Source: Lentimicrobium sp. | GTDB lineage: Bacteria; Bacteroidota; Bacteroidia; Bacteroidales; Lentimicrobiaceae | Reading direction: 5' to 3' | DNA: 32,000 nucleotides | NCBI GenBank assembly: GCA_034005265.1 | Contig: JAVEVB010000034.1 | Location: 1-32,000 of the forward strand | In this document: in pieces, positions 1 to 21,443 of the stretch | How the letters are laid out: every line of letters starts with the position of its first letter | Numbering within the stretch: position 1 is the stretch's first letter | Made by a program: the position numbers and the translations under genes | Notes under the pieces: model-generated | Database searches by the model: none | Seen by the model: the letters and a program-made list of their open reading frames with translations, nothing else | Told to the model about the DNA's origin: nothing

Positions 1-221
1 CAATCACCAATCACTAATCACCAATCACAAATCACAAATCACCAATCACCAATCACAAATCACAAATCACCAATCACCAATCACCAATTACCAATCTCCA
101 ATCACTAATCACCAATCACTAATCACCAATCACCAATCACTATTCACCAATCACCAATCACCAATCACTATTCACCAATCACCAATCACCAATCACCAAT
201 CACCAATCACCAATAAATCCT
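1..221 (+). repeat. Tandem heptanucleotide array, unit AATCAC[C/T/A], about 30 units, truncated by the window edge
   Basis: Direct reading shows uninterrupted period-7 repeats. There is no G on the + strand from 1 to 223, and variation sits mainly at the 7th position. Confidence 0.95.
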
Positions 222-242
222 TTGAATCCTAAAAACTTTCCA

Positions 243-1103
243 ATGGATAAAGCAGAAATCGTAATTTACAAGGAATCTGATAGTGCCGACTTCCAGATCG
301 AAGTTAGGGTTGAAGATGAAACCGTATGGCTTACCCAATCTCAAATGGCCGAATTATTTGATGCAACAAAACAAAACATCAGCCTTCATATAAGTAATAT
401 ATTCAGCGAAGGTGAACTTGAAACTGCGGCAACTGTCAAGGAATCCTTGACAGTTCAACTGGAAGGCTTAAGAAAAGTAAAAAGGAACATTAATTACTAC
501 AATCTTGATGTTATAATTTCAGTTGGATACCGGGTAAAATCTATACGTGGTACCCAATTCAGGATATGGGCAAACAAAGTACTTAAAGAATATCTTTTGA
601 AAGGCTATGTTGTTGATCATCGTATTGGAAAAATCGAAAAAGAAGTTTATTCATTGAATAAGAGATTTGATGAATTTGAATTTCAGATCAAAAGTAACTT
701 TCCTCCATCAGAGGGCATTTTCTTTGATGGCCAAATATTCGATGCCTGGCAATTCGTTTCACGATTGATCAAAGATGCCGAAGAAACTATTGTTTTAATC
801 GATAACTACGTGGATGAAAGTGTTTTGATGTTACTTTCCAAAAGAAACCCAAATGTGAAAGCAACAATCTTCACCGGCAACATCACCAAACAACTCGCAA
901 CTGACCTGAAAAAACATCATCAGCAATATCCGGTAATAGAATTGAAACACTTTTCAAAATCACACGACCGCTTTTTAATCATTGATATGAAAACTGTTTA
1001 TCATATTGGAGCCTCATTGAAAGACCTGGGAAAGCGTTGGTTTGCCTTCTCAAAAATTAACCTTGACCCCAAAGACTTACTTAAGCGAATCGAGGAAGAA
1101 TAA
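243..1103 (+). CDS. RhuM-family (virulence protein RhuM-like) protein
   Basis: The N-terminal signature VWLTQSQMAELFDATKQNISLHISNIFSEGEL and the segment YYNLDVIISVGYRVKSIRGTQFRIWANKVLKEYL are typical of RhuM. I prefer the ATG at 243 over the TTG at 222. Confidence 0.85.
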   Translation: MDKAEIVIYKESDSADFQIEVRVEDETVWLTQSQMAELFDATKQNISLHISNIFSEGELETAATVKESLTVQLEGLRKVKRNINYYNLDVIISVGYRVKSIRGTQFRIWANKVLKEYLLKGYVVDHRIGKIEKEVYSLNKRFDEFEFQIKSNFPPSEGIFFDGQIFDAWQFVSRLIKDAEETIVLIDNYVDESVLMLLSKRNPNVKATIFTGNITKQLATDLKKHHQQYPVIELKHFSKSHDRFLIIDMKTVYHIGASLKDLGKRWFAFSKINLDPKDLLKRIEEE

Positions 1104-1140
1104 GGTTCCGTGTTTCGTGTTCAGGGTTCAGTGAACAATG

Positions 1141-1518
1141 AACACCAATCACCAATCACAAATCACCAATCACCAATCACCAATCACTAATAACTAATCA
1201 CTAATAACTAATCACCAATCACCAATCACTAATCACTAATCACCAATCACCAATCACCAATCACTAATAACTAATCACCAATCACCAATCACCAATCACC
1301 AATCACCAATCACCAATCACCAATCACCAATCACCAATCACCAATAACTAATCACCAATCACTAATAACTAATCACCAATCACTAATAACTAATCACCAA
1401 TCACCAATCACCAATCACCAATCACCAATCACCAATCACCAATCACCAATCACCAATCACCAATCACCAATCACCAATCACCAATCACTAATCACCAATC
1501 ACTAATCACCAATCACTA
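1141..1518 (+). repeat. Tandem heptanucleotide array (AATCACC / AATCACT / AATAACT / AATCACA), about 54 units
   Basis: Direct reading shows period 7. The + strand has no G from 1141 to 1520. This is the same family as 1-221. Confidence 0.97.
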
Positions 1519-2676
1519 ATGACTAATCACAAGTCACCAATCACCAAATTAAAAGTCCTCACCGTCGTCGGCACCCGCCCCGAAATCATCCGCCTCTCCT
1601 GCGTGTTGCAAAAGCTGGATGCCTCTGAAGCCATTGATCATATCCTGGTGCATACCGGACAGAATTACGACTACGAACTGAACGAAGTTTTCTTTGAAGA
1701 CCTCGGATTGCGTCGTCCTGATTTCTTTTTGAATGCTGCCGGCACCAATGCCACCACTACCGCCGGGCAGATATTGATCAATATTGACCCCGTGCTCGAA
1801 CAGGTAAACCCCGATGCCTTTCTGGTACTGGGCGACACCAACTCATGCCTTTGTGCCATAGCCGCCAAAAAACGGCACATCCCCATCTTTCACATGGAAG
1901 CCGGAAACCGCTGTTTCGACCAGCGTGTGCCCGAGGAAAGCAACCGTAAAATTGTTGATCACATCAGCGACATCAATATGACTTACAGCGATATCGCCCG
2001 CGAATATCTGCTGCGCGAAGGCCTGCCTGCCGACCGCATCATAAAAACCGGCAGCCCCATGTTTGAGGTATTGCAGCATTATATGCCCAAAGTTGAACAA
2101 TCTGCCATACTCAACACCCTGGGCTTAACCAAGGGGAACTATTTTGTGGTATCAGCCCACCGCGAGGAAAATATAGCTTCTGAAAAGAACTTCTTTAACC
2201 TGGTTGAAATCCTGAACCAGATTGCCACAAAATTCAATCTGCCGGTGATTGTTTCCACGCACCCCCGCACCCGCAAGATGATTGAAAAGCACCAGGTAAA
2301 ATTTCATGAGCAGGTACGCCTGATGAAACCCATGGGCTTGAGCGACTACCTTGCCCTGCAGGTAAACTCAAAAACAGTGCTGTCGGATAGTGGCACCATT
2401 TCAGAGGAATCTTCCATTCTGAACTTCCGTGCCTTAAACATACGTGAGGCCCACGAGCGCCCCGAAGCCATGGAAGAAGCATCGGTGATGATGGTTGGCC
2501 TCAACCCCGAACGGGTAATGCAAGGCCTCGTGCAGTTGCAATACCAGAAAACCGGCAACGAACGCAATCTCCGCCAGATCGCCGACTACAGCATGCCGAA
2601 TGTAAGCGACAAGGTGGTGAGAATTATTCTGAGTTATACCGATTATGTGAAACGAACGGTGTGGAGTGAAAAATAG
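1519..2676 (+). CDS. Non-hydrolysing UDP-N-acetylglucosamine 2-epimerase, FnlC/Cap5G/WbjD-like
   Basis: Motifs VVGTRPEIIRLS, ILVHTGQNYDYELNEVFF and HMEAGNRCFDQRVPEESNRKIVDH are present. The only canonical start is an ATG inside a degenerate repeat unit (AATGACT). Confidence 0.9.
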   Translation: MTNHKSPITKLKVLTVVGTRPEIIRLSCVLQKLDASEAIDHILVHTGQNYDYELNEVFFEDLGLRRPDFFLNAAGTNATTTAGQILINIDPVLEQVNPDAFLVLGDTNSCLCAIAAKKRHIPIFHMEAGNRCFDQRVPEESNRKIVDHISDINMTYSDIAREYLLREGLPADRIIKTGSPMFEVLQHYMPKVEQSAILNTLGLTKGNYFVVSAHREENIASEKNFFNLVEILNQIATKFNLPVIVSTHPRTRKMIEKHQVKFHEQVRLMKPMGLSDYLALQVNSKTVLSDSGTISEESSILNFRALNIREAHERPEAMEEASVMMVGLNPERVMQGLVQLQYQKTGNERNLRQIADYSMPNVSDKVVRIILSYTDYVKRTVWSEK

Positions 2677-2726
2677 AACACGGATCTCGTCCGAGGCAGA
2701 GACAAGGTAACACTGATTTGACGGAT

Positions 2727-2757: not shown

Positions 2758-2800
2758 AGAACACAGATCACCTCGACCCATTTTACTGTAATTCAACAAA

Positions 2801-4330
2801 TTGGAATCTACATCATCTTCAAATAAACGTATTGCGAAGAATACGATGATGTTGTATATAAGGATGCTGCTTACGATGGCAGTTTCTTTATATACTTCAC
2901 GCATCGTATTGAATACACTGGGTGTTGAAGATTTTGGTATTTACAATGTGGTAGGTGGATTTGTTACCATGTTTGCATTTTTGAACAGTGCAATGGCCAC
3001 TGCAACCCAGCGATTCCTCTCTTTTGAAATTGGCCGTAAGGACAGCGTCCAGTTAGGCAATGTATTTAGCATGAGTGTTAACATTCATTTTATTATTGCT
3101 TTTGTTATTCTAATTTTTGCGGAAACAGTCGGTTTGTGGTTTGTAAACACTCAGTTAACGATACCACCAGAAAGGATGGTAGCTGCCCAATGGGTTTATC
3201 AATTTTCAATTTTAGCATTAATGGTGAATGTGGTAAGCGTACCCTATAACGCCATTATTATTGCCCATGAGCGGATGAATGTATATGCATGGGTAAGTAT
3301 AGCCGAAGTAAGTTTAAAATTACTAATTGTATTTATGCTACAATGGTTTGGTTTTGATAAACTAAAGTTATACGCCATTTTAATTTTTTCAGTTACTTTA
3401 ACTATAAGGTTGGTTTATGGTGTTTATTGCAATAAAAACTTTAAAGAAAGTAAATTTAGTTTCTTTTGGGATAAACCTTTGTTTAACACTTTATTGAGCT
3501 ATGCCGGATGGAATCTCTGGGGTAATGCAGCTATGGCCATGTATGGTCAAGGTGTAAATGTATTGCTGAACATTTTCTTCGGACCAGCGATAAATGCTGC
3601 AGCTGGAATAGCATATCAAATAAGTGGCAGCATAAATGGGTTCGTTCAAAATTTTCAAATGGCAATGAATCCACAAATCATTAAATCTTTTGCAGCTAAT
3701 AATATTAAATACATGCATCAGCTTATTTTTCAAGGAGCGAAGTATTCATTTTTTTTACTTCTTGTTTTTTCACTTCCTATTTTAATGGAGACAGGAACAA
3801 TTTTAAAATTATGGTTAAAAATCGTTCCTGAACACACGATTGTGTTTACCCAATTGGTAATTGCTACGGCATTAATAAATAGCATCTCTGGCCCGCTAAT
3901 GACATCAGCACAAGCTTCTGGAAAAATAAAGTTTTATCAAGCGGTCGTTGGCGGGATTTTATTATTAATTCTTCCTATTTCTTATTTTTTTTTCAAATTA
4001 GATTTTCCTCCTGAAACAACTTTCGTAATAAGTTTTATAATCTATATTTTCGCACTTTATGCGAGATTAATAATTGTGAGTCCGCTTGTCAATTTATCTA
4101 TCCGGGACTACATGAAAAATGTTGTTTTGCAAATTATTCCTGTTTTTCTGGTGTCAACATTACTGCCAATTATTGTTAAACATTATATGACTGAGGGAAT
4201 TCTGAGATTTTTCATAGTCAGCTTCATTTCTGTTATATCAGTTATTTTTAGCATTTATGTGTTTGGACTCAAACACGAAGAACGTCAGTTTTTAGGTCAA
4301 AAACTAGGACAAGTTGTCTTTAAAAAATGA
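2801..4330 (+). CDS. wzx: Wzx-type polysaccharide flippase (MOP superfamily)
   Basis: The 509-aa protein is polytopic. Its N-terminus KRIAKNTMMLYIRMLLTMAVSLYTSRIVLNTLGVEDFGIYNVVGG is typical of Bacteroidota flippases. The TTG start is uncertain. Confidence 0.8.
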   Translation: MESTSSSNKRIAKNTMMLYIRMLLTMAVSLYTSRIVLNTLGVEDFGIYNVVGGFVTMFAFLNSAMATATQRFLSFEIGRKDSVQLGNVFSMSVNIHFIIAFVILIFAETVGLWFVNTQLTIPPERMVAAQWVYQFSILALMVNVVSVPYNAIIIAHERMNVYAWVSIAEVSLKLLIVFMLQWFGFDKLKLYAILIFSVTLTIRLVYGVYCNKNFKESKFSFFWDKPLFNTLLSYAGWNLWGNAAMAMYGQGVNVLLNIFFGPAINAAAGIAYQISGSINGFVQNFQMAMNPQIIKSFAANNIKYMHQLIFQGAKYSFFLLLVFSLPILMETGTILKLWLKIVPEHTIVFTQLVIATALINSISGPLMTSAQASGKIKFYQAVVGGILLLILPISYFFFKLDFPPETTFVISFIIYIFALYARLIIVSPLVNLSIRDYMKNVVLQIIPVFLVSTLLPIIVKHYMTEGILRFFIVSFISVISVIFSIYVFGLKHEERQFLGQKLGQVVFKK

Positions 4331-4352
4331 TTCAGCCCAATAAAACAATAAC

Positions 4353-5480
4353 ATGAAAAATTTGCTTTTTTCTGGCTACTATGGTCATCAAAATACTGGA
4401 GACGATGCATTTATTGAAGTTGCAGCTTGGGGTGCAAAAAAATACTGGCACTGCGGAAATAGTAAGTTTATAACACAAAATTTACCGATAATTCAAAATC
4501 ATGCGGATTTAGTGGGGAAAAATTATTTTAAAGGAAACTATTTCTTAAAAAGTACAATTGCAACTATTTCTGCTGATGCTTTCATTTGTGCTGGTGGGTC
4601 AACTTTCCATTCCCCAATCAACGATTTGGATCCAATCAATATTGCAAGGCTGAAAAAGAAATATTTTCAAAAATTCAAGATCGGAGCAATAGGTGTATCT
4701 TTGGGTCCATATCGATCCATTGTTGCTGAAAAGGAAAACATTAATCTATTGCGCAAATTTGATTTTCTTGCCCTCCGGGATAAAGAATCCTATAAAATGG
4801 CTATGGAATATAATTTACCCTATGAACCTATAGAAGCATTCGATTTAGCCGCACTTTTACCCAAAATTTATGGCAATATTTCAAAAGACGAGATACCTTT
4901 CCAAAAAAATATTTTAGGGATCAGCATTTGCAATTATGAGAGCTATTTGAAAAACGGAGATTTAAAAAATGAAGCTCGAAGAAATGAACAAATAGAAAAT
5001 CTTTTATTTAAAATTGCTGGTTTAAACCAGAAGACGGTATTTCGATTTTTTATTTTTAATGGCAACAAGAATATAGGTGATAAAAAGGCTACGTTGGCAC
5101 TAGTAAGCAAGTTAAAATCAATAAAATCCTTTGTGTGTGAGATTGTAGATTATGACCCAAACACTTATAATACTTGGTTAAAAATACAAGAATGTAATTT
5201 GGTTATATCCACTAGACTTCATGCAGCTGTCTTTGCTTGTTTTGCCAATGTACCGTTTTTTTTGGTTGAGTATCACAGAAAATGCTCGGATTTTTTAAAT
5301 AACATTGGATACCAAAATAATTATAGAATTTTTGATGCCGACTTTGAAGTCAATAAATTCGCATTAAAAATAATTGAACTGTTGGCCGAAAAACAGCCAT
5401 ACATAAAACCAACGAATATTGATAAAGCAGTTGACAAAGCCGAATATAATTTCACAAAAATCAAAATTCATGGAGGCTAA
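4353..5480 (+). CDS. Polysaccharide pyruvyl transferase family protein
   Basis: It has the N-terminal GYYGHQNTGDDAF motif and the C-terminal STRLHAAVFA segment characteristic of CsaB/WcaK-type pyruvyl transferases. Confidence 0.85.
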   Translation: MKNLLFSGYYGHQNTGDDAFIEVAAWGAKKYWHCGNSKFITQNLPIIQNHADLVGKNYFKGNYFLKSTIATISADAFICAGGSTFHSPINDLDPINIARLKKKYFQKFKIGAIGVSLGPYRSIVAEKENINLLRKFDFLALRDKESYKMAMEYNLPYEPIEAFDLAALLPKIYGNISKDEIPFQKNILGISICNYESYLKNGDLKNEARRNEQIENLLFKIAGLNQKTVFRFFIFNGNKNIGDKKATLALVSKLKSIKSFVCEIVDYDPNTYNTWLKIQECNLVISTRLHAAVFACFANVPFFLVEYHRKCSDFLNNIGYQNNYRIFDADFEVNKFALKIIELLAEKQPYIKPTNIDKAVDKAEYNFTKIKIHGG

Positions 5481-6357
5481 ACATATTTATTTTAGCATTG
5501 TAATACCGCTCTTTAATAAGGGTAAAAGTATAAGTAGTACGATAAATTCAGTTTTAAATCAAACCTATAGTGATTTTGAATTAATTCTTGTAAACGATGG
5601 CTCAACGGATAATAGTGTAAATATCGTAGAAAGCTGCGATGACAAACGCATTCGATTAATACACCAAGAGAATAAAGGTGTTTCAGCGGCACGAAATAGA
5701 GGTATTCAAGAAGCTAAAAATGAGTGGATAGCTTTTTTAGATGCTGATGATCAATGGGACAATACATATTTAGAAAAAATGCAACAATTAATAATTGATT
5801 TTCCTCAAGCTTCCTTTTTAGGTTGTCAATTTGCACAAAAAGAAAGAGATAATGTCAGATTAGTCAATGGAGTTCATCAAGTTAGGGGTTATATTGAGAA
5901 TTATTTCCAGTTTGCGATTATAGCTCCTCTTGTACATTCATCTGCGGTAATTGTAAAAAAATCTTGTTTTGATGTTGTTGGCATATTTAATTCAAAATTT
6001 TCAAGGGGCGAAGATCTTGATATGTGGAATAGATTAGCAAAGAATTTCACCTTAGCATTTGAACCAACTTTACTAAGTTATTATATTCAAGATTCAGATA
6101 ATAGAGCATGTAAAAATATTCCTTCATTAGAAAAATTCTATTTAGCGCCTAATTTATTCAGACTCCCAAAATATGAGCAAAAGTATATGATTATACTTCT
6201 AAAGGGAGTCTTGTCTGAGTTGTTCTCTTCAAAACATTATTTGACTTTTATAAGGCTTAGCTTAAAAAATCACCTTTATTCGATAATTGCTTTTAAAGAT
6301 ATTATTCTTAGCAGGTTTACAAGAAAAATTATGACACCTGATAAACATCTGGTATAA
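5470..6357 (+). CDS. Family 2 glycosyltransferase
   Basis: FSIVIPLFNKGKSISSTINSVLNQTYSDFELILVNDGSTDNS and the FLDADDQW (DxD) motif are present. The ATG at 5470 overlaps the upstream stop by 11 nt. Confidence 0.85.
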   Translation: MEAKHIYFSIVIPLFNKGKSISSTINSVLNQTYSDFELILVNDGSTDNSVNIVESCDDKRIRLIHQENKGVSAARNRGIQEAKNEWIAFLDADDQWDNTYLEKMQQLIIDFPQASFLGCQFAQKERDNVRLVNGVHQVRGYIENYFQFAIIAPLVHSSAVIVKKSCFDVVGIFNSKFSRGEDLDMWNRLAKNFTLAFEPTLLSYYIQDSDNRACKNIPSLEKFYLAPNLFRLPKYEQKYMIILLKGVLSELFSSKHYLTFIRLSLKNHLYSIIAFKDIILSRFTRKIMTPDKHLV

Positions 6358-6501
6358 CAAACTAAGGATATTTACTGTTTATAGAAATTATTAATGATGT
6401 TTTTAAAGTATCTATAGTGAAGAATATTAAACAATGTCCAATTAAAATAAATGAAAAATTTCACTAAACTTGTTGGCGATAAATATTTTAAATAAAAGAA
6501 G

Positions 6502-7830
6502 ATGGATTTTTTAAAAATTGAGACTTTTTTTGACATTAATAATAATGAAGACAGGACGATTGAAGTTCTATCAGCGGTTTATCAAAATATTACTGTGTTA
6601 AAAGAAAAAGTTCGAAAAATCGGGGAAGGGATTCTAGATAACGAAAATATTATTAAAGGTAAAAAAATATTATTAAAACCCAACTGGGTCACACATGATC
6701 GTAAACCTGATGACGAATGGTCCTTACGAACACATGATGCTGTAATATTAGCCTTAGTAGAAATTCTAATTGAGCAAAACCCAGCAAGTATCATTATTGG
6801 AGATGCTCCGATTCAAGGGTGTGACTGGAATAAAATGTTAAGTAAAAATTTTATAAACGATATTGAGGTATTAAAAGATAAATATAAAATCCCAATTGCT
6901 ATTAAAGATTTCCGACGCGTTACATTTAACCCCGTCCTAAATAATCCAATAAAAGATAGAAGGCCTTTGACTGATTATGTAATTTTTGATCTTGGTACAA
7001 ATAGTTTTCTTGATCCAATTAGCACTGAAAATAACATCTTCAGAGTTACCAACTATGATCCTGATCGTTTAGCCGAATCGCATAGGAAAGGAATTCATAA
7101 ATATTGTATAACAAAAGAATTATTTGAAGCCGATGTTGTTATTTCATTGCCTAAAGTAAAAACCCACCAGAAGACAGGTATAACTTGTGCTTTAAAAAAC
7201 ATTGTTGGCGTAAATGGTGATAAAGATTATCTCCCGCATCATCGCATAGGTGGAACTGGGTTTGGAGGAGATTGTTATCCCGGTAAAAATATTTTCAGGC
7301 TTTGGTCGGAGTACATTCTAGATATTGCAAACAGGCGCCAGGGAAGTGTATTTTATAAATTTTTTACATACTCTGCAGCAATTCTATGGAAACTGACCAA
7401 TCCTCAAAAAGAACATCATTTAGCTGCAGGCTGGCATGGAAATGATACAACCTGGCGAATGGTGTTAGATTTAAATAAAATCTCCATTTATGGCAAAGCA
7501 GATGGTACAATTTCTGACACTCCTCAAAGAAATTTATATAGTCTATGTGATGGGATAATTGGTGGCCAGGGCAATGGCCCTTTGGAACCTGAACCTCTGC
7601 CATTAGGTATTTTAAGCTTTACAAATCACAGCGGACTGAACGATATATGTATGGCAATTTTAATGGGATTTGATCATAAGAAAATAGCACTTCTAAGAAA
7701 TCAAAAGATTGAGTTCTCAAAAGGAGATTTTCCAATTAGCCTTAACGGCCATAGAATAACATTTGAAATGTTATCAAAATATGCAGTTGAAACCGTTCCT
7801 CCTCCGGGTTGGATAAATCATTTAAAATAA
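6502..7830 (+). CDS. DUF362 domain-containing protein
   Basis: KKILLKPNWV and SLPKVKTHQKTGITCALKNIVG match the DUF362 pattern as I remember it. Confidence 0.75.
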   Translation: MDFLKIETFFDINNNEDRTIEVLSAVYQNITVLKEKVRKIGEGILDNENIIKGKKILLKPNWVTHDRKPDDEWSLRTHDAVILALVEILIEQNPASIIIGDAPIQGCDWNKMLSKNFINDIEVLKDKYKIPIAIKDFRRVTFNPVLNNPIKDRRPLTDYVIFDLGTNSFLDPISTENNIFRVTNYDPDRLAESHRKGIHKYCITKELFEADVVISLPKVKTHQKTGITCALKNIVGVNGDKDYLPHHRIGGTGFGGDCYPGKNIFRLWSEYILDIANRRQGSVFYKFFTYSAAILWKLTNPQKEHHLAAGWHGNDTTWRMVLDLNKISIYGKADGTISDTPQRNLYSLCDGIIGGQGNGPLEPEPLPLGILSFTNHSGLNDICMAILMGFDHKKIALLRNQKIEFSKGDFPISLNGHRITFEMLSKYAVETVPPPGWINHLK

Positions 7831-7833
7831 ATT

Positions 7834-8844: not shown

Positions 8845-8851
8845 AGAATTA

Positions 8852-13986: not shown

Positions 13987-13997
13987 GTCGTAAATAA

Positions 13998-14422
13998 GGT
14001 TCACGCTGCGCCCGCCGCGAAAGAGTTCACGCTGCGCCCGCTGCGAAAAGGTTCACGCCACGCCCGCTGCGAGAAACAAAAGTTCACGCCACGCTCGCCG
14101 CGAGAAACAATACGCCGCGCCCGCCGCGAGAAACAATACGCCGCGTTCGCCGCGAGAAACAACACGCCGCGCCCGTTGCGAGAAACAATACGCTGCGCCC
14201 GCTGCGAGAAACAATACGCCACGTTCGCCGCGAGAAACAACACGCTGCGCCCGCCGCGAGAAACAACACGCTGCGCCCGTTGCGAGAAACAATACGCTGC
14301 GCCCGCTGCGAGAAACAATACGCTGCGCCCGCTGCGAGAAACAACACGCCACGTTCGCCGCGAGAAACAACACGCTGCGCCCGCCGCGAGAAACAATACG
14401 CCACGTCCACCGCGAGAAACAA
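13998..14422 (+). repeat. Tandem 26-nt array, consensus YACGCYRCGYYCGYYGCGAGAAACAA: 4 irregular GTTCACGC-type units followed by 12 perfectly phased units (14111-14422)
   Basis: Direct reading shows contiguous units with no spacers. The array ends 7 nt before the GxxExxY ATG. Confidence 0.97.
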
Positions 14423-14429
14423 ATCATCT

Positions 14430-14816
14430 ATGGAAAACAAACCCGAAAACACCATCGCCACCGCCATCCTTGATCAGGCATTTAAAATTCACACCGAATT
14501 AGGCCCCGGATTGCTTGAATCTGTTTACGAGCGTTGTCTTCAGTACGAACTCATCGAAGCAGGGTACACAGCTCAGACGCAACTCCCTGTTCCAATGAAT
14601 TACAAATCCATACGTTTTGAAGCCGGATTTCGTATTGATCTTTTGGTAAATGATATGGTACTGGTCGAGATTAAATCGGTAGAAACATTGGCACCGGTTC
14701 ATTTTGCACAAACGCTTACCTATTTGAAGATGAAAAACATCAAACTGGGATTGTTAATCAATTTCAATGTTAAATATCTGAAGAATGGCATTCATCGGGT
14801 AGCTAATAATTTATAA
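14430..14816 (+). CDS. GxxExxY protein (PD-(D/E)XK nuclease-like fold)
   Basis: ENTIATAILDQAFKIHTELGPGLLESVYERCLQYEL carries the G-L-L-E-S-V-Y signature, and LLVNDMVLVEIKSV carries the D..E.K-like motif. I chose the ATG at 14430 because the longer ORF runs into the repeat. Confidence 0.9.
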   Translation: MENKPENTIATAILDQAFKIHTELGPGLLESVYERCLQYELIEAGYTAQTQLPVPMNYKSIRFEAGFRIDLLVNDMVLVEIKSVETLAPVHFAQTLTYLKMKNIKLGLLINFNVKYLKNGIHRVANNL

Positions 14817-14821
14817 CTAAA

Positions 14822-14962
14822 CGGTTCACGCTTCGCTCGCCGCGAGAAAGGTTCACGCCGCGTTCGCTGCGAGAAAAGTTCACGCCGCGCTCGCCGCGAG
14901 AAAAAAAAGTTCACGCTGTACCCGCCGCGAGAAACAATACGCCGCGTTCGCCGCGAGAAACA
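14822..14962 (+). repeat. Second array of the same 26-nt family (5 units)
   Basis: It has the same 5'-to-3' polarity as the upstream array, with GTTCACGC-type units first and TACGC...GAGAAACAA units last. Confidence 0.9.
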
Positions 14963-14990
14963 ACAACCTACTCAATTTTTCACCCACCCA

Positions 14991-15593
14991 ATGTACACAT
15001 CCTTCTTAAAGCCAGCTATTGATCTATCATTAAGCCTGATTGCTTTACTGCTACTTTCACCCGTATTGGTCATAATTACCCTTTTACTTTTTTTCGCCAA
15101 CACCGGTCGCCCGTTCTTTTCCCAAACCCGCCCCGGAAAAAACGCCCGGCTATTTAAGGTCATCAAGTTTAAAACCATGAACGACCACCGCGATGCTGCC
15201 GGCAAGCTACTGCCCGATGCGCAACGCCTCACCCCTGTTGGAAAGTTTGTGCGTAAAACCTCATTGGATGAACTACCGCAACTGCTGAATGTGCTGAAGG
15301 GTGATATGAGCCTGATAGGGCCACGGCCTTTACTGGTGGAGTACCTGCCACTTTACAACGAAAAACAGGCGCGCCGCCATGAAGTAAAACCCGGCATCAC
15401 CGGCTGGGCACAGGTGAATGGCCGCAATGCCATCAGCTGGGAACAAAAGTTTGAATACGATGTTTGGTATGTGGATCATTGCACGTTTTCAATGGATATT
15501 AAAATCCTTTTAAAGACCATTGAAAAGGTGTTTAAAGGAGAAGGAATCAACCAACAGGGGCAGGCAACAGCGGAAGCATTTAAAGGAAATTAA
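14991..15593 (+). CDS. Undecaprenyl-phosphate sugar phosphotransferase, small monotopic PglC/EpsL type
   Basis: The 200-aa protein has one N-terminal hydrophobic helix plus FKVIKFKTM, DELPQLLNVLKGDMSLIGPRP and KPGITGWAQVNGRN (Bac_transf signature). Confidence 0.9.
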   Translation: MYTSFLKPAIDLSLSLIALLLLSPVLVIITLLLFFANTGRPFFSQTRPGKNARLFKVIKFKTMNDHRDAAGKLLPDAQRLTPVGKFVRKTSLDELPQLLNVLKGDMSLIGPRPLLVEYLPLYNEKQARRHEVKPGITGWAQVNGRNAISWEQKFEYDVWYVDHCTFSMDIKILLKTIEKVFKGEGINQQGQATAEAFKGN

Positions 15594-15596
15594 TTG

Positions 15597-16214
15597 ATGA
15601 AAACAAACGACAAAATATGGATTTACGGAGCCAGCGGACATGGTAAAGTTATTTTAGATTGTCTCATGGCAGCCGATATCAAGGTGAGTGGCTTTATTGA
15701 TGATAAGTCAAAAACAATAATTGTTGGCTATCCGGTTACAAACGATTCATCCATTGATCCAATCAAGGACCAGGTAATTATTGGTATTGGCAACAATAAA
15801 ACCAGAAAACGCCTGTCGGAAATAAACAATTTCCACTACCTGAAAGTAATACATCCATCAGCACTACTGTCCAATTATGCAGAGATCGGTGAAGGTTCTG
15901 TGGTATTTCACCATTGCGTAATTCAAACGGGAACAACAATTGGCAAACATTGTATCATCAACACCTCAGCTTCTATAGATCACGATTGTATTGTAGAAGA
16001 TTTTGCGCACGTTTCACCCAAGGTAACCCTATGCGGCAATGTTAAGGTTGGTGAAGGAACGCATGTTGGTGCGGGGGCAGTTATCATTCCAGGTATTAAG
16101 ATCGGGAAATGGGCTACCATTGGCGCCGGGGCAGTAATCATTGAAGATGTACCGGATTATGCGGTTGTTGTAGGCAATCCCGGAAGAATCATCAAACTGA
16201 ACGATCCTTTGTAA
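15597..16214 (+). CDS. PglD/NeuD/EpsM-family sugar N-acetyltransferase
   Basis: An N-terminal Rossmann-like IWIYGASGHGKVILDCL segment is followed by a C-terminal hexapeptide helix ending VVVGNPGRII. Confidence 0.85.
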   Translation: MKTNDKIWIYGASGHGKVILDCLMAADIKVSGFIDDKSKTIIVGYPVTNDSSIDPIKDQVIIGIGNNKTRKRLSEINNFHYLKVIHPSALLSNYAEIGEGSVVFHHCVIQTGTTIGKHCIINTSASIDHDCIVEDFAHVSPKVTLCGNVKVGEGTHVGAGAVIIPGIKIGKWATIGAGAVIIEDVPDYAVVVGNPGRIIKLNDPL

Positions 16215-16222
16215 GCACTCAA

Positions 16223-16864
16223 ATGGGTAGGATGAACAACAAACGCAAGTATCTGATCGCGGGCCTCTTGTCCGCATTTTTTATTTTTGGCATACTGTCG
16301 TTGCGGCAGGCGGGCAACTGGCTGGTTGTTTCCGATAAACCCATTCACGCCGATGCCCTGCTGGTGCTGATGGGTGGTGTGGAGGAACGTATTCCCCAGG
16401 CCATTGATTTGTACAAGGCGGGCTATGCGCCCCTGCTTCTTTTCCCGGACGATTATGAAGAAAACCCGCCCCTTATCCTGCCCAATGGCACAAAACTATC
16501 CAACGATGCCGCCAAAAGCAGGCACCTCAGCCGGCAGTATGGCGTACCCGACTCAGCCATCCGCATTGTTCAGGGGCCGGCATTGAATACACAGGCCGAA
16601 GCAGAGCTTATGGCAGGTTACCTTGAAGGTCATCCGGAAACGGATACCCTTATCCTGGTCAGTTCCTCCTACCATATGCGGAGGGCAAGCTTCATTTTCC
16701 GGAATGAATTTGCCTCAAAAGGGCTTGAAATTACCCTGATCAGCGTACCTTCGCGCTACAGCACGTTTAAGCCGGATAAATGGTGGAGATCAGGCACTTC
16801 ACGCAACATTGTTTTCTACGAATATTTAAAAATGGCTTATAACTTACTGTGGGACAGGTGGTGA
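16223..16864 (+). CDS. DUF218 / YdcF (ElyC-SanA-like) family membrane-anchored protein
   Basis: It has an N-terminal TM segment, LLVLMGG...AIDLYKAGYAP and LILVSSSYHMRRA. Confidence 0.75.
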   Translation: MGRMNNKRKYLIAGLLSAFFIFGILSLRQAGNWLVVSDKPIHADALLVLMGGVEERIPQAIDLYKAGYAPLLLFPDDYEENPPLILPNGTKLSNDAAKSRHLSRQYGVPDSAIRIVQGPALNTQAEAELMAGYLEGHPETDTLILVSSSYHMRRASFIFRNEFASKGLEITLISVPSRYSTFKPDKWWRSGTSRNIVFYEYLKMAYNLLWDRW

Positions 16865-16868
16865 AAAT

Positions 16869-16976
16869 GGTCTTTGGTCTTTGGTCTTTGGGGCGGAGGT
16901 GGTTGATGTTAGTTTTTCCCAGGATTTGTATAGCGATCTTAAGGCTTAAAGAGTCTTTAGTCTTTGGTCTTTGGGG
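16869..16976 (+). repeat. Two blocks of GGTCTTT heptamers (16869-16893, 16951-16976), each followed by GGGGCGG(A)GGTGGTTG
   Basis: Direct reading shows these are the reverse complement of the AAAGACC blocks downstream. Confidence 0.9.
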
Positions 16977-17071
16977 CGGTGGTTGGCAATTTGAGCCTCA
17001 GCCCAGGAAATAAACTTATTAACTTTTAGTTATGAAAGTTTTTTTAAAGCTTAATCTTCGTTCTAAAACAA

Positions 17072-17170
17072 CCAAAGACTAAAGACCAAAGACCAACACC
17101 CAAAGACCAAAGACTAGAACCACAACAAATGTTAGTTCTAACTTCTCATCATAAAACAACAACACCCAAA
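17072..17170 (+). repeat. AAAGACC/AAAGACT heptamer block (17072-17115) followed by copy 1 of a 53-bp direct repeat (17118-17170)
   Basis: The direct repeat aaccacaacaaatgttagttctaacttctcatcataaaacaacaacacccaaa recurs at 17641-17693 with one mismatch. Confidence 0.9.
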
Positions 17171-17180
17171 ACCCAACCCC

Positions 17181-17534
17181 ATGCGCGACTTCCGAAAACT
17201 AACCGTCTGGCAGAAATCAATAGAATTTGCAAAAGACATCTACCTTATTACAAAACAATTTCCGGACAAAGAGAGGTATGGACTGTGCAGTCAGTTACAA
17301 CGTGCAGCGGTCTCCATTCCATCCAATATAGCAGAAGGATCTGCCAGAAGAACATCAAATGATTTTGCACGTTTTCTGGATATTGCTTTAGGCTCAGCGT
17401 TTGAAGTGGAAACTCAACTAACCATTGCCCATCAAATAGCTTACCTGGATAGTGAAACCTTTCAAAAATTACTGGGAGAGCTTACTATCCTTCAAAAGCA
17501 AATCAATATGTTGCGAACAAAAATTCTTGACTAG
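17181..17534 (+). CDS. Four-helix-bundle protein ('23S rRNA intervening sequence protein' family)
   Basis: MRDFRKLTVWQKSIEFAKDIY...GLCSQLQRAAVSIPSNIAEGSAR...FLDIALGSAFEVETQL is the classic signature of this family. Confidence 0.9.
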   Translation: MRDFRKLTVWQKSIEFAKDIYLITKQFPDKERYGLCSQLQRAAVSIPSNIAEGSARRTSNDFARFLDIALGSAFEVETQLTIAHQIAYLDSETFQKLLGELTILQKQINMLRTKILD

Positions 17535-17565
17535 CTTATTATTTTAAAAAACGAGAAGAACAGCT

Positions 17566-17713
17566 CCAAAGACCAAAAGCCCAACAAATGTTAGTTTATA
17601 ATCTAATCTCAGTGCTTATAACACCAAAGACCAAAGACCCAACCACAACAAATGTTAGTTCTAACTTCCCATCATAAAACAACAACACCCAAAGACTAAA
17701 GACCAAAGACTAA
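17566..17713 (+). repeat. AAAGACC blocks (17566-17580, 17624-17640, 17688-17713) enclosing copy 2 of the 53-bp direct repeat (17641-17693)
   Basis: This comes from direct reading. A partial third copy of the direct-repeat core (caacaaatgttagtt) lies at about 17582-17596. Confidence 0.9.
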
Positions 17714-17776
17714 TTTGTGCAGAAATAGGCGGTCAAAGAAATTAGCGTAAATTCGCCGTTACAGCAAAAACAGAAA

Positions 17777-18808
17777 ATGCCCTTCATTACTTCACGTGAT
17801 CCTCTTTGGAAAAAATTACTGGCAAACACGCCCCACGATGTTTACCACCTTCCGGGATATGCCACCATTGAAGCAGGTTTGCTGAATGGAGAAGCCATTG
17901 CCTGGGTTCACCGCGAAGAGGGAAACACCTTCCTTATACCGCTGGTGAGCAGAACCATCAATGGCGGGCAGGAGTTCCGCGATCTGGTAAGCCCTTATGG
18001 TTATTCCGGCATGTTGACACTCAACAGCATACATGCCGATGAAGCCTCACATGCCTTATCGTTGTTCAACAAAGAAGCTGCCGCCAATGGCTATGTGAGC
18101 AGTTTCCTGCGACTGAACCCCCTGCTCAACTCATGGCAGTTGCCACAAACGGAAGCCTGGCGGCAGTGGTTTCACGGAGGCACGGTATCGGTAAATCTGA
18201 GTCAGCCGGTGGAGGAAATCCGGGACAGCTTTCACCAGAACCACCGCCGCAACCTGCAACGGCTGCATACCTCAGGATATACCGCATCCATCAACCAATG
18301 GGCTGAACTGCCCCATTTTATGAAGGCGTACCGCCAGACCATGCAGCGGCGACAAGCCCACCCCTATTATTTTTTCCCGGACAGTTATTTTCAGGCACTT
18401 CACCAGCTGCTTGGTGCGCGACTGGTATTCATCAGCGTAATGGATGCCGACGGTGAATTTGCTGCCGGCGGCTTGTTCACCCTGTTTGACAAAGTGATGC
18501 AGTACCATTTGGGAGCAACAACCAATAAACACCTGTACTTCAGCCCATCAAAGCTGATGATGGAAGCCGCCATAGAATATGGCATCGCCAACGGAGCCGA
18601 CCTGCTGCATCTGGGCGGAGGTTTGGGTGGCAGCACCACCGATGGCCTGTTCAGGTTTAAAAAAGGCTTCGCCGAAAAATACCATCCCTATACCAGCTTA
18701 CGGTTCATTCATTTGCCGGCGGTTTATGAAAAACTTAAACTCTCGCTCGGCAAAGGCTACAACCGAAACACCTATTTCCCTGAATACCGGATAATTGTGG
18801 AGGAGTGA
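17777..18808 (+). CDS. FemAB-like / GNAT (Acetyltransf_6-type) acyl- or aminoacyl-transferase
   Basis: The size, SPYGYSGML, YHLGAT and LLHLGGGLGGSTTDGLFRFKKGF resemble FemAB-related proteins found in EPS loci. This is motif-level recognition only. Confidence 0.6.
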   Translation: MPFITSRDPLWKKLLANTPHDVYHLPGYATIEAGLLNGEAIAWVHREEGNTFLIPLVSRTINGGQEFRDLVSPYGYSGMLTLNSIHADEASHALSLFNKEAAANGYVSSFLRLNPLLNSWQLPQTEAWRQWFHGGTVSVNLSQPVEEIRDSFHQNHRRNLQRLHTSGYTASINQWAELPHFMKAYRQTMQRRQAHPYYFFPDSYFQALHQLLGARLVFISVMDADGEFAAGGLFTLFDKVMQYHLGATTNKHLYFSPSKLMMEAAIEYGIANGADLLHLGGGLGGSTTDGLFRFKKGFAEKYHPYTSLRFIHLPAVYEKLKLSLGKGYNRNTYFPEYRIIVEE

Positions 18809-18884
18809 AGGTGAATGGAACACGGATTTCACGGATTGCACTATCGCTGGCGCGCACAAGCACATCCCGGGGAAAGCGGTTCCC

Positions 18885-19028
18885 TTCGCGTAAATTCGCG
18901 TAATTAGCGGTTAAAAAAGCCTTAGCACTTGAAAACAATTAGCGTAAATCAGCGTAATTAGCGGTTAAAAAAACCTTCGCGGAAATGAGTAGTTGAAAAT
19001 AATTCGCGTAATTCGCGGTTAAATAACA
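18885..19028 (+). repeat. About 2.5 copies of a 55-64-nt unit built on TT(A/C)GCGTAAAT..GCGTAATTAGCGGTTAAAAAA
   Basis: This comes from direct reading. A 12-nt exact core (attagcgtaaat) also occurs at 17741-17752, upstream of the FemAB-like gene. Confidence 0.8.
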
Positions 19029-19052
19029 TCCTCTTCAACATACACCTGCTGA

Positions 19053-19634
19053 ATGAAACAAAAAATTCAAAAATTCCTGAAACTAAGGGAAGACAAGCGT
19101 TACCGGCCAATATTCGACGTTGGCATCTTTGCCCTGTTGCTGTTTTTTGTCCACTACACCTACATTTGGTGGTCTTCGGCAGGCTTTCCGCCGGTAAAGT
19201 CATTGGTTGACCAGCTGTTTATCTCGGCTTCAGCCATCCTTTTTGATCAAAGCGTGTGGGTAGTGCAGCATCTTTTTGGCATGGACATCACCACCCAGGG
19301 GCAAAACATACTTTTCGTCACCAGCGAAGGCACAACGGGCTATGTAGGCGTAGAACCGGGCTGCACCAGCCTCAAGCAGTGGGTACACTGGATCGTACTG
19401 ATGCTGTTGTTCCCCGGGCCATGGAAACACAAACTCTGGTACATTCCTATGGGGGTAGTAGTCATCCACTTCGTCAACCTGATAAGAATAACCGGACTGG
19501 TAGTCACCACCACAGCCTGGCCTCAATCTTTTGAATTCTTCCACAATTACATCTTCAAAACCTTCTTTTATTTTATGATATTTTTAATGTGGGTGGTTTG
19601 GGTAGAGTATTTTGCAAGTAAGGAGCGGCTTTAG
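19053..19634 (+). CDS. Exosortase/archaeosortase-family protein (short, XrtF-like size)
   Basis: The 193-aa polytopic protein has VEPGC(104)TSL, NLIR(145)I, FFH(164)NYIF and a C-terminal FLMWVVWVEYF. The order and spacing match exosortase Cys/Arg/His motifs as I recall them. Confidence 0.7.
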   Translation: MKQKIQKFLKLREDKRYRPIFDVGIFALLLFFVHYTYIWWSSAGFPPVKSLVDQLFISASAILFDQSVWVVQHLFGMDITTQGQNILFVTSEGTTGYVGVEPGCTSLKQWVHWIVLMLLFPGPWKHKLWYIPMGVVVIHFVNLIRITGLVVTTTAWPQSFEFFHNYIFKTFFYFMIFLMWVVWVEYFASKERL

Positions 19635-19668
19635 CGACTTAAGCGACTTAAGCGAACGTAGCGATTCA
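19633..19668 (+). repeat. Four tandem 9-mers AGCGACTTA / AGCGACTTA / AGCGAACGT / AGCGATTCA
   Basis: Direct reading shows the array begins inside the stop codon of the exosortase-like gene. Confidence 0.7.
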
Positions 19669-19726
19669 ATACAAGACCATAAACGTCTATCTTTGTAACA
19701 GAGAGGATTGTATAAAGAACCAGGGC

Positions 19727-19776
19727 TTGAATCCTGAAAGTCCCGAGAGGAGGTACGACGATTCGGGACTGAATCC
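19727..19776 (+). repeat. Single copy of the 42-nt hairpin unit TGAATCCTGAAAGTCCCGAGAGGAGGYACGACGATTCGGGAY
   Basis: The stem is AGTCCCGA/TCGGGACT. The same unit is tandemly repeated at 21275-21400. Confidence 0.85.
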
Positions 19777-19794
19777 ATTAATTGCAGTGATTCG

Positions 19795-19834
19795 TCGCCA
19801 TTTATTGTAGTGTAAGTCCGCCATTTATTGTAGT
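19795..19834 (+). repeat. Two exact 16-bp direct repeats CGCCATTTATTGTAGT spaced 24 bp apart, 70-110 bp upstream of the ATPase start
   Basis: Direct reading places the copies at 19795-19810 and 19819-19834. Confidence 0.8.
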
Positions 19835-19903
19835 TAGTTTGCATCTTTTATCTGAAAACATTAATTTTGTACTGGCATTATCATCATTTACACAAAAACA
19901 AGA

Positions 19904-21160
19904 ATGAAAAGTGTTCATTATTATCCTAGGATTTGTGATAACGTATTGAGTAGAAAGCTGCAATTAACTGGCGCAACGCTGATAGTTGGTCCGAAATGGT
20001 GTGGAAAAACAGAAACTGCCCTGCAAGCATCCAGGAGTGTCATCTATATACAGTCTGATCCGCAATATAAAGAAACCGGAAAAATAATGCCTTCCTTGTT
20101 GTTAGAAGGTGAAACTCCCCGGTTAATAGACGAATGGCAAGAAGTTCCTGAATTGTGGAATGCTGTGCGACACAGTGTTGATCAAAGAAGAAAGCAGGGG
20201 CAGTTTATACTGACCGGTTCGGCTACGCCACATGATGAAGTGATGGCTCATTCCGGAATAGGTCGTATATCAAGAATACTGATGCGTCCAATGACACTTT
20301 TCGAGTCAAAAGAGAGCACCGGCACTGTTTCACTCAAAGCACTTTTTGATGGTAAACCAGAGATTGCAGCTGTAAGTTCGTTGGATATTCCCCAATTGGC
20401 ATACTCAATATGTCGTGGAGGATGGCCGGGAGCAGTAACATTACTGAATGGTGGAGAATCGCTTGCCCGTGAATATACCGATATGCTTGTTGAGGCAGAC
20501 ATTAGTCATCTGGATGGTATAGAACGGAACCCCTATCGCGTTCGGCAGGTTTTACGCTCTTTAGCACGCAATATATCCACCTTAACCACTGCCCGTACAA
20601 TTTTAGAGGATGTGAGAGCGAACGATTTAACAATCAATGAGCGAACACTCGAAAGCTATCTCAATGCAATGCGCCGTCTGTTTGTTGTGGAAGATGTACC
20701 TGCATGGTCACCCTCTCTCCGATCAAAAACAACGATTCGAAACTCTGATAAACGGCAGCTGGCAGATCCATCTATAGCAGCAGCTGTGATGAGGGTGGAT
20801 GTAAATGGTTTACTGCACGATTTGAATACTTTTGGTTTCTTGTTTGAATCGTTATGCACACGGGATGTGCGGGTGTATGCACAATCCAATGACGGGGAAA
20901 TATTTCATTACAGAGATAAAGATGAATTGGAAATTGACCTGATAATATCACTTAACGATGGCAGATGGGCAGGTATAGAGGTGAAACTTGGGGAGCACCA
21001 GGCCGATGAAGCAGCCGCTAATTTGATTCAATTAAAAAACAAAGTGGATACATCGCGTAACGGAGAACCAAGTTTTTTGATGGTTCTTACTGGTGGAAAA
21101 TTTGCCTACCAACGTACTGATGGAGTAATGGTAGTGCCATTGGCTTGTTTAAGAGACTAA
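19904..21160 (+). CDS. AAA+ ATPase with C-terminal DUF4143 (restriction-endonuclease-like) domain
   Basis: It has Walker A GPKWCGKT, FILTGSA, and a C-terminal half with the LLHDLNTFGFLFESLCTRDV...DKDELEIDLII pattern typical of ATP-binding/DUF4143 proteins. Confidence 0.85.
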   Translation: MKSVHYYPRICDNVLSRKLQLTGATLIVGPKWCGKTETALQASRSVIYIQSDPQYKETGKIMPSLLLEGETPRLIDEWQEVPELWNAVRHSVDQRRKQGQFILTGSATPHDEVMAHSGIGRISRILMRPMTLFESKESTGTVSLKALFDGKPEIAAVSSLDIPQLAYSICRGGWPGAVTLLNGGESLAREYTDMLVEADISHLDGIERNPYRVRQVLRSLARNISTLTTARTILEDVRANDLTINERTLESYLNAMRRLFVVEDVPAWSPSLRSKTTIRNSDKRQLADPSIAAAVMRVDVNGLLHDLNTFGFLFESLCTRDVRVYAQSNDGEIFHYRDKDELEIDLIISLNDGRWAGIEVKLGEHQADEAAANLIQLKNKVDTSRNGEPSFLMVLTGGKFAYQRTDGVMVVPLACLRD

Positions 21161-21243
21161 AGTCTATTGTCAATAATCAAGTGAAAAAGTCGATGGTCGC
21201 TTGTCTCGGGAGCGCGAAGCGATAAAGAGGTAGGCGTTTGACA

Positions 21244-21268
21244 TTAGAAATTAGAAATTAGAAATTGG
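21244..21268 (+). repeat. TTAGAAA heptamer x3
   Basis: This comes from direct reading. The same heptamer recurs at 27454-27469. Confidence 0.8.
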
Positions 21269-21274
21269 AATAGT

Positions 21275-21435
21275 TGAATCCTGAAAGTCCCGAGAGGAGG
21301 CACGACGATTCGGGATTGAATCCTGAAAGTCCCGAGAGGAGGCACGACGATTCGGGATTGAATCCTTAAATCCTTAAATCCCTATAGTCCCGAGAGCAAA
21401 GCGATTCGGGATTGAATCTTTGAATCTTTGAATCC
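21275..21435 (+). repeat. Array of the 42-nt hairpin unit: two exact-period copies (21275, 21317), a third start at 21359, a degenerate copy, and 8-mer tails
   Basis: Direct reading shows period 42. The degenerate copy is at about 21385-21418. The tails are CCTTAAAT x2 and GAATCTTT x2. The array ends 8 nt before the aminotransferase ATG. Confidence 0.9.
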
Positions 21436-21443
21436 TTAATACA

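Follow-up and report, generated by a model that had tools for sequence, protein, structure and literature searches.

How do single genes with no part in making a glycan come to stand inside a polysaccharide operon, each between copies of a repeat family of its own? The question is raised by contig JAVEVB010000034.1 (assembly GCA_034005265.1), whose positions 1 to 32,000, hereafter the window, carry an exopolysaccharide (EPS) operon; the organism is an uncultured, Lentimicrobium-like bacterium within the Bacteroidales. The answer that we favor, and consider modestly probable, is that these guest genes are single-gene cassettes that resemble the intervening sequences (IVSs) of 23S rRNA, are bounded by repeat blocks specific to a gene lineage, and were inserted at junctions of co-oriented host genes.

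All open reading frames (ORFs) of size between 243 and 22622 lie on the + strand, and the majority have polysaccharide functions. They comprise Wzx and Wzy, a WecB epimerase, glycosyltransferases of the GT2 and GT4 families, a pyruvyl transferase and the priming transferase Bac_transf, together with DUF218, a PglD-like acetyltransferase, an exosortase (best match XrtX), a FemAB-like protein and a DegT aminotransferase. Pfam and NCBIfam searches bore out the original prediction in placing four non-glycan genes among them on the same strand:

243..1103, + strand, guest 1, RhuM family (Pfam PF13310, 1.4e-25; PADLOC candidate defence family PDC-S05, full-length, 1.9e-121)
14430..14816, + strand, guest 2, GxxExxY / PDDEXK_3 (Pfam, 6e-39; NCBIfam TIGR04256, 1.5e-40)
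17181..17534, + strand, guest 3, IVP (23S_rRNA_IVP), the four-helix-bundle '23S rRNA IVS protein' (PF05635, 2.2e-41; TIGR02436, 1.5e-38)
19904..21160, + strand, guest 4, AAA_14 + DUF4143 ATPase (Pfam; PADLOC candidate PDC-S01, 4.2e-66)

The window IVP matches, at 100% identity, a protein whose name assigns it to a Lentimicrobium sp. metagenome-assembled genome (MAG), and homologues of the FemAB-like protein carry the names Bacteroidales or Bacteroidetes. Look-ups of the exact Bac_transf and DegT proteins gave no match. As had been stated beforehand, Pfam finds no integrase, transposase or recombinase domain in the 29 gene-assigned ORFs of the window; the scan did not extend to the remaining ORFs of 80 amino acids (aa) or more, most of which overlap.

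We detected arrays with Tandem Repeats Finder (TRF) and a repeat finder, and tested flanks by counting the 10-mers shared between the two intergenic regions of each gene. These programs reproduced every array listed in the original prediction at the coordinates given there, and the blocks around the guests are the following:

1..214, + strand, left CAATCAC heptamer array, 30.6 copies with 89% matches (TRF), truncated by the window start, its sense strand free of G, stopping 29 nt before the RhuM start
1143..1547, + strand, right CAATCAC array, 57.9 copies (TRF), in which a variant unit gives the WecB start codon at 1519
13995..14422, + strand, left 26-nt array (TRF 16 copies, 14002-14422), 4 TTCACGC-type then 12 CAAYACGC-type units, beginning 9 nt past the GT4 stop and stopping 7 nt before the GxxExxY start
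14820..14963, + strand, right 26-nt array (TRF 5 copies, 14824-14963), 4 TTCACGC-type then CAATACGC-type units
16865..16983, + strand, two GGTCTTT blocks (16868-16891, 16953-16974), reverse complement of AAAGACC, directly after the DUF218 stop, 5' arm of an intergenic hairpin
17067..17170, + strand, AAAGACC array (17071-17114) then copy 1 of a 53-bp direct repeat (17118-17170), upstream of IVP
17560..17732, + strand, AAAGACC units (17623-17639, 17691-17713), copy 2 of the 53-bp repeat (17641-17693) and an AAAGAC array, downstream of IVP
19723..19782, + strand, one copy of a 42-nt hairpin unit (19729-19770), upstream of DUF4143
21270..21411, + strand, 42-nt hairpin units, 2.3 copies (21274-21370), then a variant hairpin (TAGTCCCGAGAGCAAAGCGATTCGGGA), downstream of DUF4143

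The direct 10-mers shared across the flanks number 29 for RhuM, 48 for GxxExxY, 55 for IVP (with 14 inverted ones in addition) and 23 for DUF4143, against 0-1 for every other window gene except the FemAB-like gene, whose 7 agree with the weaker version of the pattern that had been proposed for it. Because the four guests reach 23-55 and other genes 0-1, the flank-repeat pattern is real, guest-specific and far beyond chance. The four families are also mutually unrelated, as claimed, with only 0-2 10-mers matching between them. For DUF4143 the claim stood in part: the 42-nt unit occurs on both sides, but the left side holds a single copy and no array.

If the repeats belong to the guests rather than to the site, they should be found with the same gene elsewhere, and for GxxExxY they are. 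The 26-nt unit TTCACGC-YRCGYYCGYY-GCGAGAAA, or diverged forms of it, lies on both flanks of GxxExxY homologues (83-91% aa identity) in four gene contexts, given here with the labels of the retrieved loci:

Window and L033 (91% aa identity), upstream of Bac_transf, the L033 slot being the window slot
L029-L031 (87%), between a Na/Ca exchanger gene (Na_Ca_ex) and GlyRS
L032 (86%), in a further EPS locus, where it follows an AAA_14 gene, with diverged repeats
L034, Gillisia sp. Hel_I_86, an isolate of the Flavobacteriia (83%), with a GFO-type dehydrogenase on one side and a DUF433 gene/WecB on the other, and with degenerate repeats

Away from GxxExxY genes the family was not seen in the approximately 450 kb of DNA that we retrieved. 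Between loci the unit consensus is identical at 22/24, 19/24 and 15/24 positions (unit extraction being crude for the most distant loci), and third codon positions of the GxxExxY ORF in the matching loci show identities of 0.64, 0.50 and 0.46; since the unit thus appears more conserved than synonymous sites, the comparison argues for constraint on it. Each unit is an imperfect, weak hairpin, TTCACGC...GCG(A/T)GAA. Both window arrays keep one internal order, four TTCACGC-type units followed by CAAYACGC-type units, and because both flanks repeat this order in full, a duplicated block fits better than one split array.

Searches further afield returned GxxExxY proteins in abundance, with 7857 matches at E <= 1e-25 and identities of up to 83% between bacterial classes. 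The window-specific 26-nt pattern gave only chance single matches among GTDB genome representatives, which do not include the source genome, and we set aside a double match there, in a Prochloraceae MAG, as a different element. The family has 0 matches in the viral contigs searched, and tblastn of GxxExxY against plasmids yielded only homologues below 60% identity, without arrays, although it was these that brought the inverted-repeat stems described below to light. Between this Bacteroidales MAG and isolates of the Flavobacteriia (Gillisia, Salinimicrobium) the protein keeps 80-83% identity, an unusually high value for a 128-aa accessory protein, and most homologues lie on short contigs (1-5 kb), which would fit flanking repeats that break assemblies. 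In the Gillisia locus L034 (4749-5300) a DUF433 gene and about 330 nt of unannotated sequence, which may contain a partner ORF, adjoin GxxExxY and are followed by a third TTCACGC..GCGAGAA block, so that one repeat family brackets two neighbouring guests.

The IVP gene behaves similarly. Its homologues at 79-80% identity occupy a different slot, with a 404-aa GT4 gene on one side and a 384-aa gene on the other (L035-L044, L049-L058; Lentimicrobium assemblies), where both flanks read [GGTCTTT]n-spacer-[CCAAAGACCAACAG]n with the array ending at the ATG, and the parallel internal order of the two blocks recurs in these IVP homologue loci. In the DNA retrieved the AAAGACC family was not seen away from its gene, and IVPs at 30-40% identity have other repeat families on their flanks. 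Copy number in the GT4 slot amounts to 8.8, 40.9 and 47.9 units in different samples, and AAGACCA is present 44.7 times in L045, a 96%-identical strain, versus 6.3 times in the window, though short-read collapse is possible in both comparisons. In the window the two copies of the 53-bp direct repeat are 98% identical, and upstream of IVP the GGTCTTT blocks pair with the AAAGACC array into a predicted long hairpin (z = -4.3). IVP genes have also been reported as guests inside cas operons (PMC3936711). For GxxExxY and this IVP lineage, then, the block is co-inherited with the ORF across loci and taxa, and since the family accompanies close homologues at other loci, it is part of the insertion.

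That the guests are insertions at all is indicated by relatives in which one slot holds differing content. In L024, whose FemAB is 77% identical, an IVP lies between Bac_transf and PglD, genes that abut in the window (15593/15594, 0 nt), and it is flanked by a family of its own, AGAGATG/TCTCACC hairpin units that start at the Bac_transf stop codon. The DUF218-FemAB gap of L024, which is the IVP slot of the window, measures 203 nt and holds only an unrelated AATTTCT repeat (3.3 copies); in L028 (FemAB 94% identical) the same slot holds a 49-aa ORF and a DUF6169 gene, without long arrays, and homology to the window stops at 16868 and restarts at 17804. The window module itself reaches to the point where homology to L024 restarts (17733). 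These slots, polymorphic between relatives, are insertion hot spots with strain-specific content, and array length, too, differs between strains. The flank pattern extends to the relatives: in the window, L018, L021 and L024 together, at least five 10-mers are shared between the flanks of 18 of 22 guests versus 4 of 16 host genes (Fisher p = 8e-4), where host genes were counted if they had two intergenic regions of at least 60 nt, guest and host classes were assigned by us, and the loci are not independent samples; in the three relatives alone it is 14 of 18 guests. Two contigs with the 42-nt hairpin carry strings of small accessory genes between arrays (ParE, IVP, HTH_36, DUF4258, ORF6N, DUF4143).

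We conclude that a cassette consists of repeat block, ORF and repeat block, the blocks being parallel direct copies of short tandem units, several of them hairpin-forming, that fill the space between the upstream stop codon and the next start codon. In the RNA the blocks may play the part that stems have in a 23S rRNA IVS, with hairpins or flank stems that are processed or stabilize the transcript, and the operon may tolerate the insert because they do so. A G-poor tract beside each start codon would provide an unstructured leader and so permit translation of guest and following host gene alike (G content is 12% just upstream of start codons versus 20% downstream of stop codons). Arrays would lengthen and shorten by slippage, paired direct blocks would permit RecA-type loss or exchange by homologous recombination, and insertion would need a function supplied in trans and not encoded by the cassette. 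A wider proposal, which we put forward only tentatively, is that GxxExxY, IVP and similar high-copy small genes of the Bacteroidota spread as an unrecognized class of mobile element, a recombinase-less, IVS-like cassette whose protein recognizes its own flanking block in a RAYT-REP- or homing-like manner and whose blocks make the insert harmless at the RNA level in essential operons.

Several observations weigh against the cassette reading. The 42-nt hairpin has a 28-nt core of which exact copies were found in 7 metagenome loci, in every case within TTGAATCY octamer arrays and adjoining unrelated genes, so this family is dispersed through the lineage and is neither gene-specific nor, contrary to what had been supposed, private to DUF4143; it also adjoins a non-orthologous DUF4143 gene. 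A RhuM-like fragment in L024 (55% identical, 73 aa) has AATCTTTG arrays on its flanks and sits in the exosortase-DegT slot, and CAATCAC arrays exist in unrelated IMG/VR contigs without RhuM. Joint travel of gene and repeat therefore appears to hold for only two of the four guests, GxxExxY and IVP. A search of viral contigs for (CCAATCA)x4 returned 8 matches, short arrays with no RhuM, GxxExxY, IVP or DUF4143 nearby, which says nothing on whether CAATCAC and RhuM travel together. Privacy also fails as a general rule in relatives, where a single octamer family flanks at least five different guests in L018; some host genes are likewise flanked by one family (MBL in L021, DegT in L024), an array without a guest gene exists at 18885-19034, and L024 contains a pair of IVP paralogues, 68% identical to each other, whose arrays differ. 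No arrays accompany the GxxExxY homologues of about 50% identity. The related loci were retrieved by way of guest proteins, which is an ascertainment bias, the IVP contexts all come from Lentimicrobium polysaccharide loci, which are known mosaics, and most copy numbers were taken from metagenomes assembled from short reads, in which arrays can be collapsed. No circle, no deletion junction and, among the ORFs scanned, no recombinase was seen, and any function of the blocks at the RNA level is something that we purely infer. Nor was a solo array of the matching family seen at guest-less sites in the relatives, although the original prediction had expected the empty site to be one uninterrupted array: the Bac_transf/PglD junction and the L024 DUF218-FemAB gap described above both contradict it. 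What survives of the cassette idea as first framed is thus that guests are inserted and that the family travels with GxxExxY and IVP; the private 42-nt family and the solo array do not.

Might the guests simply have landed in arrays that were growing in any case? On this account the lineage would fill whatever intergenic DNA is free with repeats that arise on the spot, these microsatellites would serve as safe harbours because an operon offers no other place that may be disrupted, and an inserted gene would leave one half of a split array on each side. Related contigs are indeed full of 7-8-nt arrays, also beside housekeeping genes, TTGAATCY arrays occur everywhere in the lineage and precede DegT in L024 as they do in the window, CCAATCA arrays turn up in unrelated viral contigs, and heptamer arrays are documented in Bacteroidetes and cyanobacteria (PMC4679880). 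Such growth accounts for the 42-nt family and for the general abundance of arrays, but not for one unusual 26-nt unit that flanks GxxExxY in four gene contexts and two classes, nor for AAAGACC blocks that follow the IVP lineage to another slot. A split array moreover predicts two different halves, whereas both flanks repeat the full internal order; the window junction homologous to the L024 IVP insertion measures 0 nt; and the 26-nt unit exceeds synonymous sites in conservation. We therefore judge this explanation unlikely, if deserving of some weight. A second possibility, which we doubt a little more, is that the flanked protein binds or cuts its own repeat and thereby propagates or maintains the unit, as a RAYT-REP or homing-like pair of nuclease and cognate repeat. 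It would suit the PD-(D/E)XK-type D...E-x-K pattern found by eye in the translation of GxxExxY (IDLLV...VEIK) and present also in DUF4143 (EIDLI...IEVK), the hairpin form of the 26-nt unit and the constraint on it, the way in which protein lineage and repeat family change together, and the REP-like dispersal of the 42-nt hairpin over many sites. Yet IVP has no nuclease fold and RhuM no enzymatic domain identified by Pfam, and both show the same architecture; the 26-nt family was never seen away from GxxExxY in the DNA retrieved; the dispersed hairpin adjoins unrelated genes and a DUF4143 gene that is not orthologous; and the flanks are direct, versus inverted around RAYTs.

Since a surface polysaccharide is the product of this locus, strains differ in array copy number and arrays abut start codons, one might also take the arrays for contingency tracts that tune polarity or expression of the downstream glycan genes by phase variation, with the guests incidental. 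GxxExxY and its array unit, however, also occur outside polysaccharide loci, between Na_Ca_ex and GlyRS, and the serotype-specific block at 2801-12670 is without arrays. Arrays of 300-670 bp, moreover, greatly exceed known contingency tracts in length, and we consider this account very improbable. That an assembler mis-joined or duplicated the repeats we find hardly credible, even though an array is often the place where short-read contigs from relatives break off (L033, L045 and the end of L001). The independent Logan assembly L001 is 100% identical to window positions 15155-21303 (6149 bp, three array regions), which excludes an artefact for the arrays around IVP, for that between FemAB and the exosortase gene, and for those around DUF4143 as far as 21303, which takes in the left copy and the beginning of the array on the right; the CAATCAC and 26-nt arrays lie outside L001. 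Assemblies of many samples, from JGI, ENA, NCBI and Logan, show these architectures again.

The window contains further repeats that bracket no guest, some of them evidently native to the operon:

17733..17776, + strand, native FemAB leader with a TTAGCGTAAAT core (blastn), kept in L024
18885..19034, + strand, 54-nt unit, 3 copies (TTCGCGTAAAT...), between FemAB and the exosortase gene
21412..21443, + strand, TTGAATCT, 2.9 copies, directly upstream of DegT, native leader kept in L024
25537..25931, strand not assigned, GATTTCA heptamers and a palindromic hairpin (25722-25756), paired with 27321-27503
27321..27503, strand not assigned, GATTTCG/GAAATCA heptamers and the common hairpin (27460-27494), partner of 25537-25931

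Conservation of the FemAB leader in L024 places it outside the IVP insert. No convincing small hidden ORF was found in guest-less arrays, including that at 18885-19034. The pair at 25537-25931 and 27321-27503 is an additional same-family pair outside the operon, with 17 shared 10-mers; it brackets divergent RibD_C (-) and GCAxxG (+) genes, and its 35-nt palindromic hairpin (ATAAGAAACCTG..CCGGCAGGCTGGTTATAAA) is 91% identical between the copies.

The only in-frame start codon of WecB is an ATG that arose from a C-to-G variant of one CAATCAC unit (TAATGAC, within 1519-1547), so that the first nine or so residues of the protein (MTNHKSPIT) are array-encoded. A candidate promoter of Bacteroidetes type, with TTTG at about -33 and TAATTTTG at -7, lies at 19862, 42 nt upstream of the DUF4143 start, and a TAnnTTTG search found no other intergenic site of the operon with both elements; with the -33 TTTG confined to the candidate of this one guest, we dropped the notion that each block is a promoter as a general explanation. 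Rfam, applied to the whole window and three related loci at gathering thresholds and to 13900-21500 at E <= 1, gave no credible family and no rRNA. The glycan block at 2801-12670 has 29-35% G+C versus 41-53% on both sides, contains no array scoring above 47 in TRF, in keeping with its earlier description as repeat-free, and, tightly packed, lacks a counterpart in the orthologous operon L024, as expected of a horizontally exchanged serotype-specific region.

In the relatives, public gene calls are distorted by arrays (L024 7921-8409; L039 2373-2999; L024 13250-13924): the annotation of one IVP includes 38 extra N-terminal residues that are encoded by repeats, and within arrays the opposite strand is given ORFs of 200-224 aa that lack any Pfam match. 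L024 also has a 21-nt array of 15.9 copies at 13609-13942 and two exosortase genes (11159-11752, 16383-16964), the second in a run of DUF4143 and IVP downstream of DegT. In L021 a leucyl-tRNA synthetase of 1036 aa (9013-12123, -) has an internal match to DUF559, a Vsr-like endonuclease, at residues 641-731, possibly an inserted domain.

GxxExxY and IVP are widespread small bacterial proteins for which our literature searches yielded no account of function, and close gene lineages that carry their own conserved repeat blocks offer a concrete, testable unit of mobility. The blocks matter in practice as well, since they break short-read assemblies and cause spurious ORF calls and false N-terminal extensions. 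Situated inside capsule and EPS loci beside candidate phage-defence genes (PDC-S01, PDC-S05), they may affect the expression and diversification of surface-polysaccharide operons.

Heptamer arrays in Bacteroidetes and cyanobacteria, IVSs, integrons and the REP/RAYT system are known already, but full-text searches, whose coverage is incomplete, found no description of gene-lineage-specific repeat blocks flanking GxxExxY or IVP guests, and no described mechanism for the arrangement, as the original prediction had remarked; every known system with which we compared it fails at least one defining feature. We rejected a CRISPR array, the units being head-to-tail without spacers, and an insertion sequence or composite transposon, for which no transposase domain appears in the 29 ORFs scanned; inverted shared 10-mers number 0 for three of the four guests in the k-mer test, no search having been aimed at short terminal inverted repeats at module ends. 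Integron cassettes share with the guests the array of co-oriented single accessory genes and the strain-variable slot content. Membership was rejected, however, on defining features: IntI is absent from the ORFs scanned, though in a window of only 32 kb a distant copy might escape notice, and attC-type sites are absent from the window, the repeats lie on both sides and are tandem, direct, gene-lineage-specific and of four unrelated families, and the host genes between the guests are essential operon members and not cassettes. In REP/BIME elements and RAYTs (REPINs), too, a gene lies between copies of its own short hairpin-forming repeats, intergenic in operons, and one of our families, the 42-nt hairpin, is dispersed over 7 loci; but the genes flanked here are not HUH (Y1) transposases by Pfam, which led us to reject this membership as well, their flanks are direct, and in the DNA retrieved neither the 26-nt nor the AAAGACC family turned up apart from its gene.

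Also comparable are the STRR heptamer repeats of heterocystous cyanobacteria, which are tandem heptamers in intergenic DNA. Intergenic TAACTGA direct repeats occur in Beggiatoaceae, Cyanobacteria and Bacteroidetes (MacGregor 2015, PMC4679880). Like the arrays of the window, these repeats are tandem and intergenic, often end beside a start codon and form long arrays in some Bacteroidetes, as far as the consulted parts of PMC4679880 go; the same parts contain no report of identical array pairs that bracket a guest or of families that follow a gene lineage between loci. Tandem units of about 7 nt at many intergenic sites are found here as well, and the CAATCAC, AAAGACC and 42-nt families fit that description, but units here are also 14, 26, 42, 54 and 80 nt long, the 26-, 54- and 80-nt ones exceeding it. 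Within the Bacteroidota, the minisatellite-bearing miniature inverted-repeat transposable element of Porphyromonas gingivalis is an intergenic, non-autonomous element with tandem repeats (PMC4596501); the part of that source consulted mentions no ORF, whereas a protein-coding gene is enclosed here.

The 23S rRNA IVS with an ORF, of the Leptospira and Coxiella type (PF05635/TIGR02436), encodes the IVP protein family, and IVP takes its name from it. In both settings an ORF is embedded in the transcript of other genes and bounded by complementary repeats. GxxExxY genes of about 50% identity in Bacteroides finegoldii and Bernardetia lie tightly between co-oriented housekeeping genes, and their flanks are short inverted tandem repeats (CACAGAGGA in three copies and the complement) predicted to pair into stems (duplex dG -57.8, z = -12.7 in B. 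finegoldii; dG -34.9, z = -9.7 in Bernardetia); in B. finegoldii the minimum free energy and centroid folds both place a stem of about 29 bp around the whole ORF. Listed by locus, the predictions are an ORF-enclosing stem for the GxxExxY gene of L048 and duplexes between the flanks for L047 and the IVP of L039, so that long stems around an ORF, as in the rRNA element, would be formed by members of both families. Flank-to-flank pairing is weak in the window (z = -2.5 for GxxExxY, -1.9 for IVP), where we do not claim an IVS-type stem around the ORF and only the upstream GGTCTTT/AAAGACC hairpin is predicted. The rRNA element lies in a 23S rRNA gene, at helix 25 or 45, and its stem is cut by RNase III. 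The setting differs in that the operon is mRNA, with DUF218 and FemAB-like neighbours and no rRNA or Rfam match in the window, and in that one inverted pair there corresponds to long direct tandem arrays here. With these differences, our findings tie the guests of a polysaccharide operon to the intervening sequences of rRNA.

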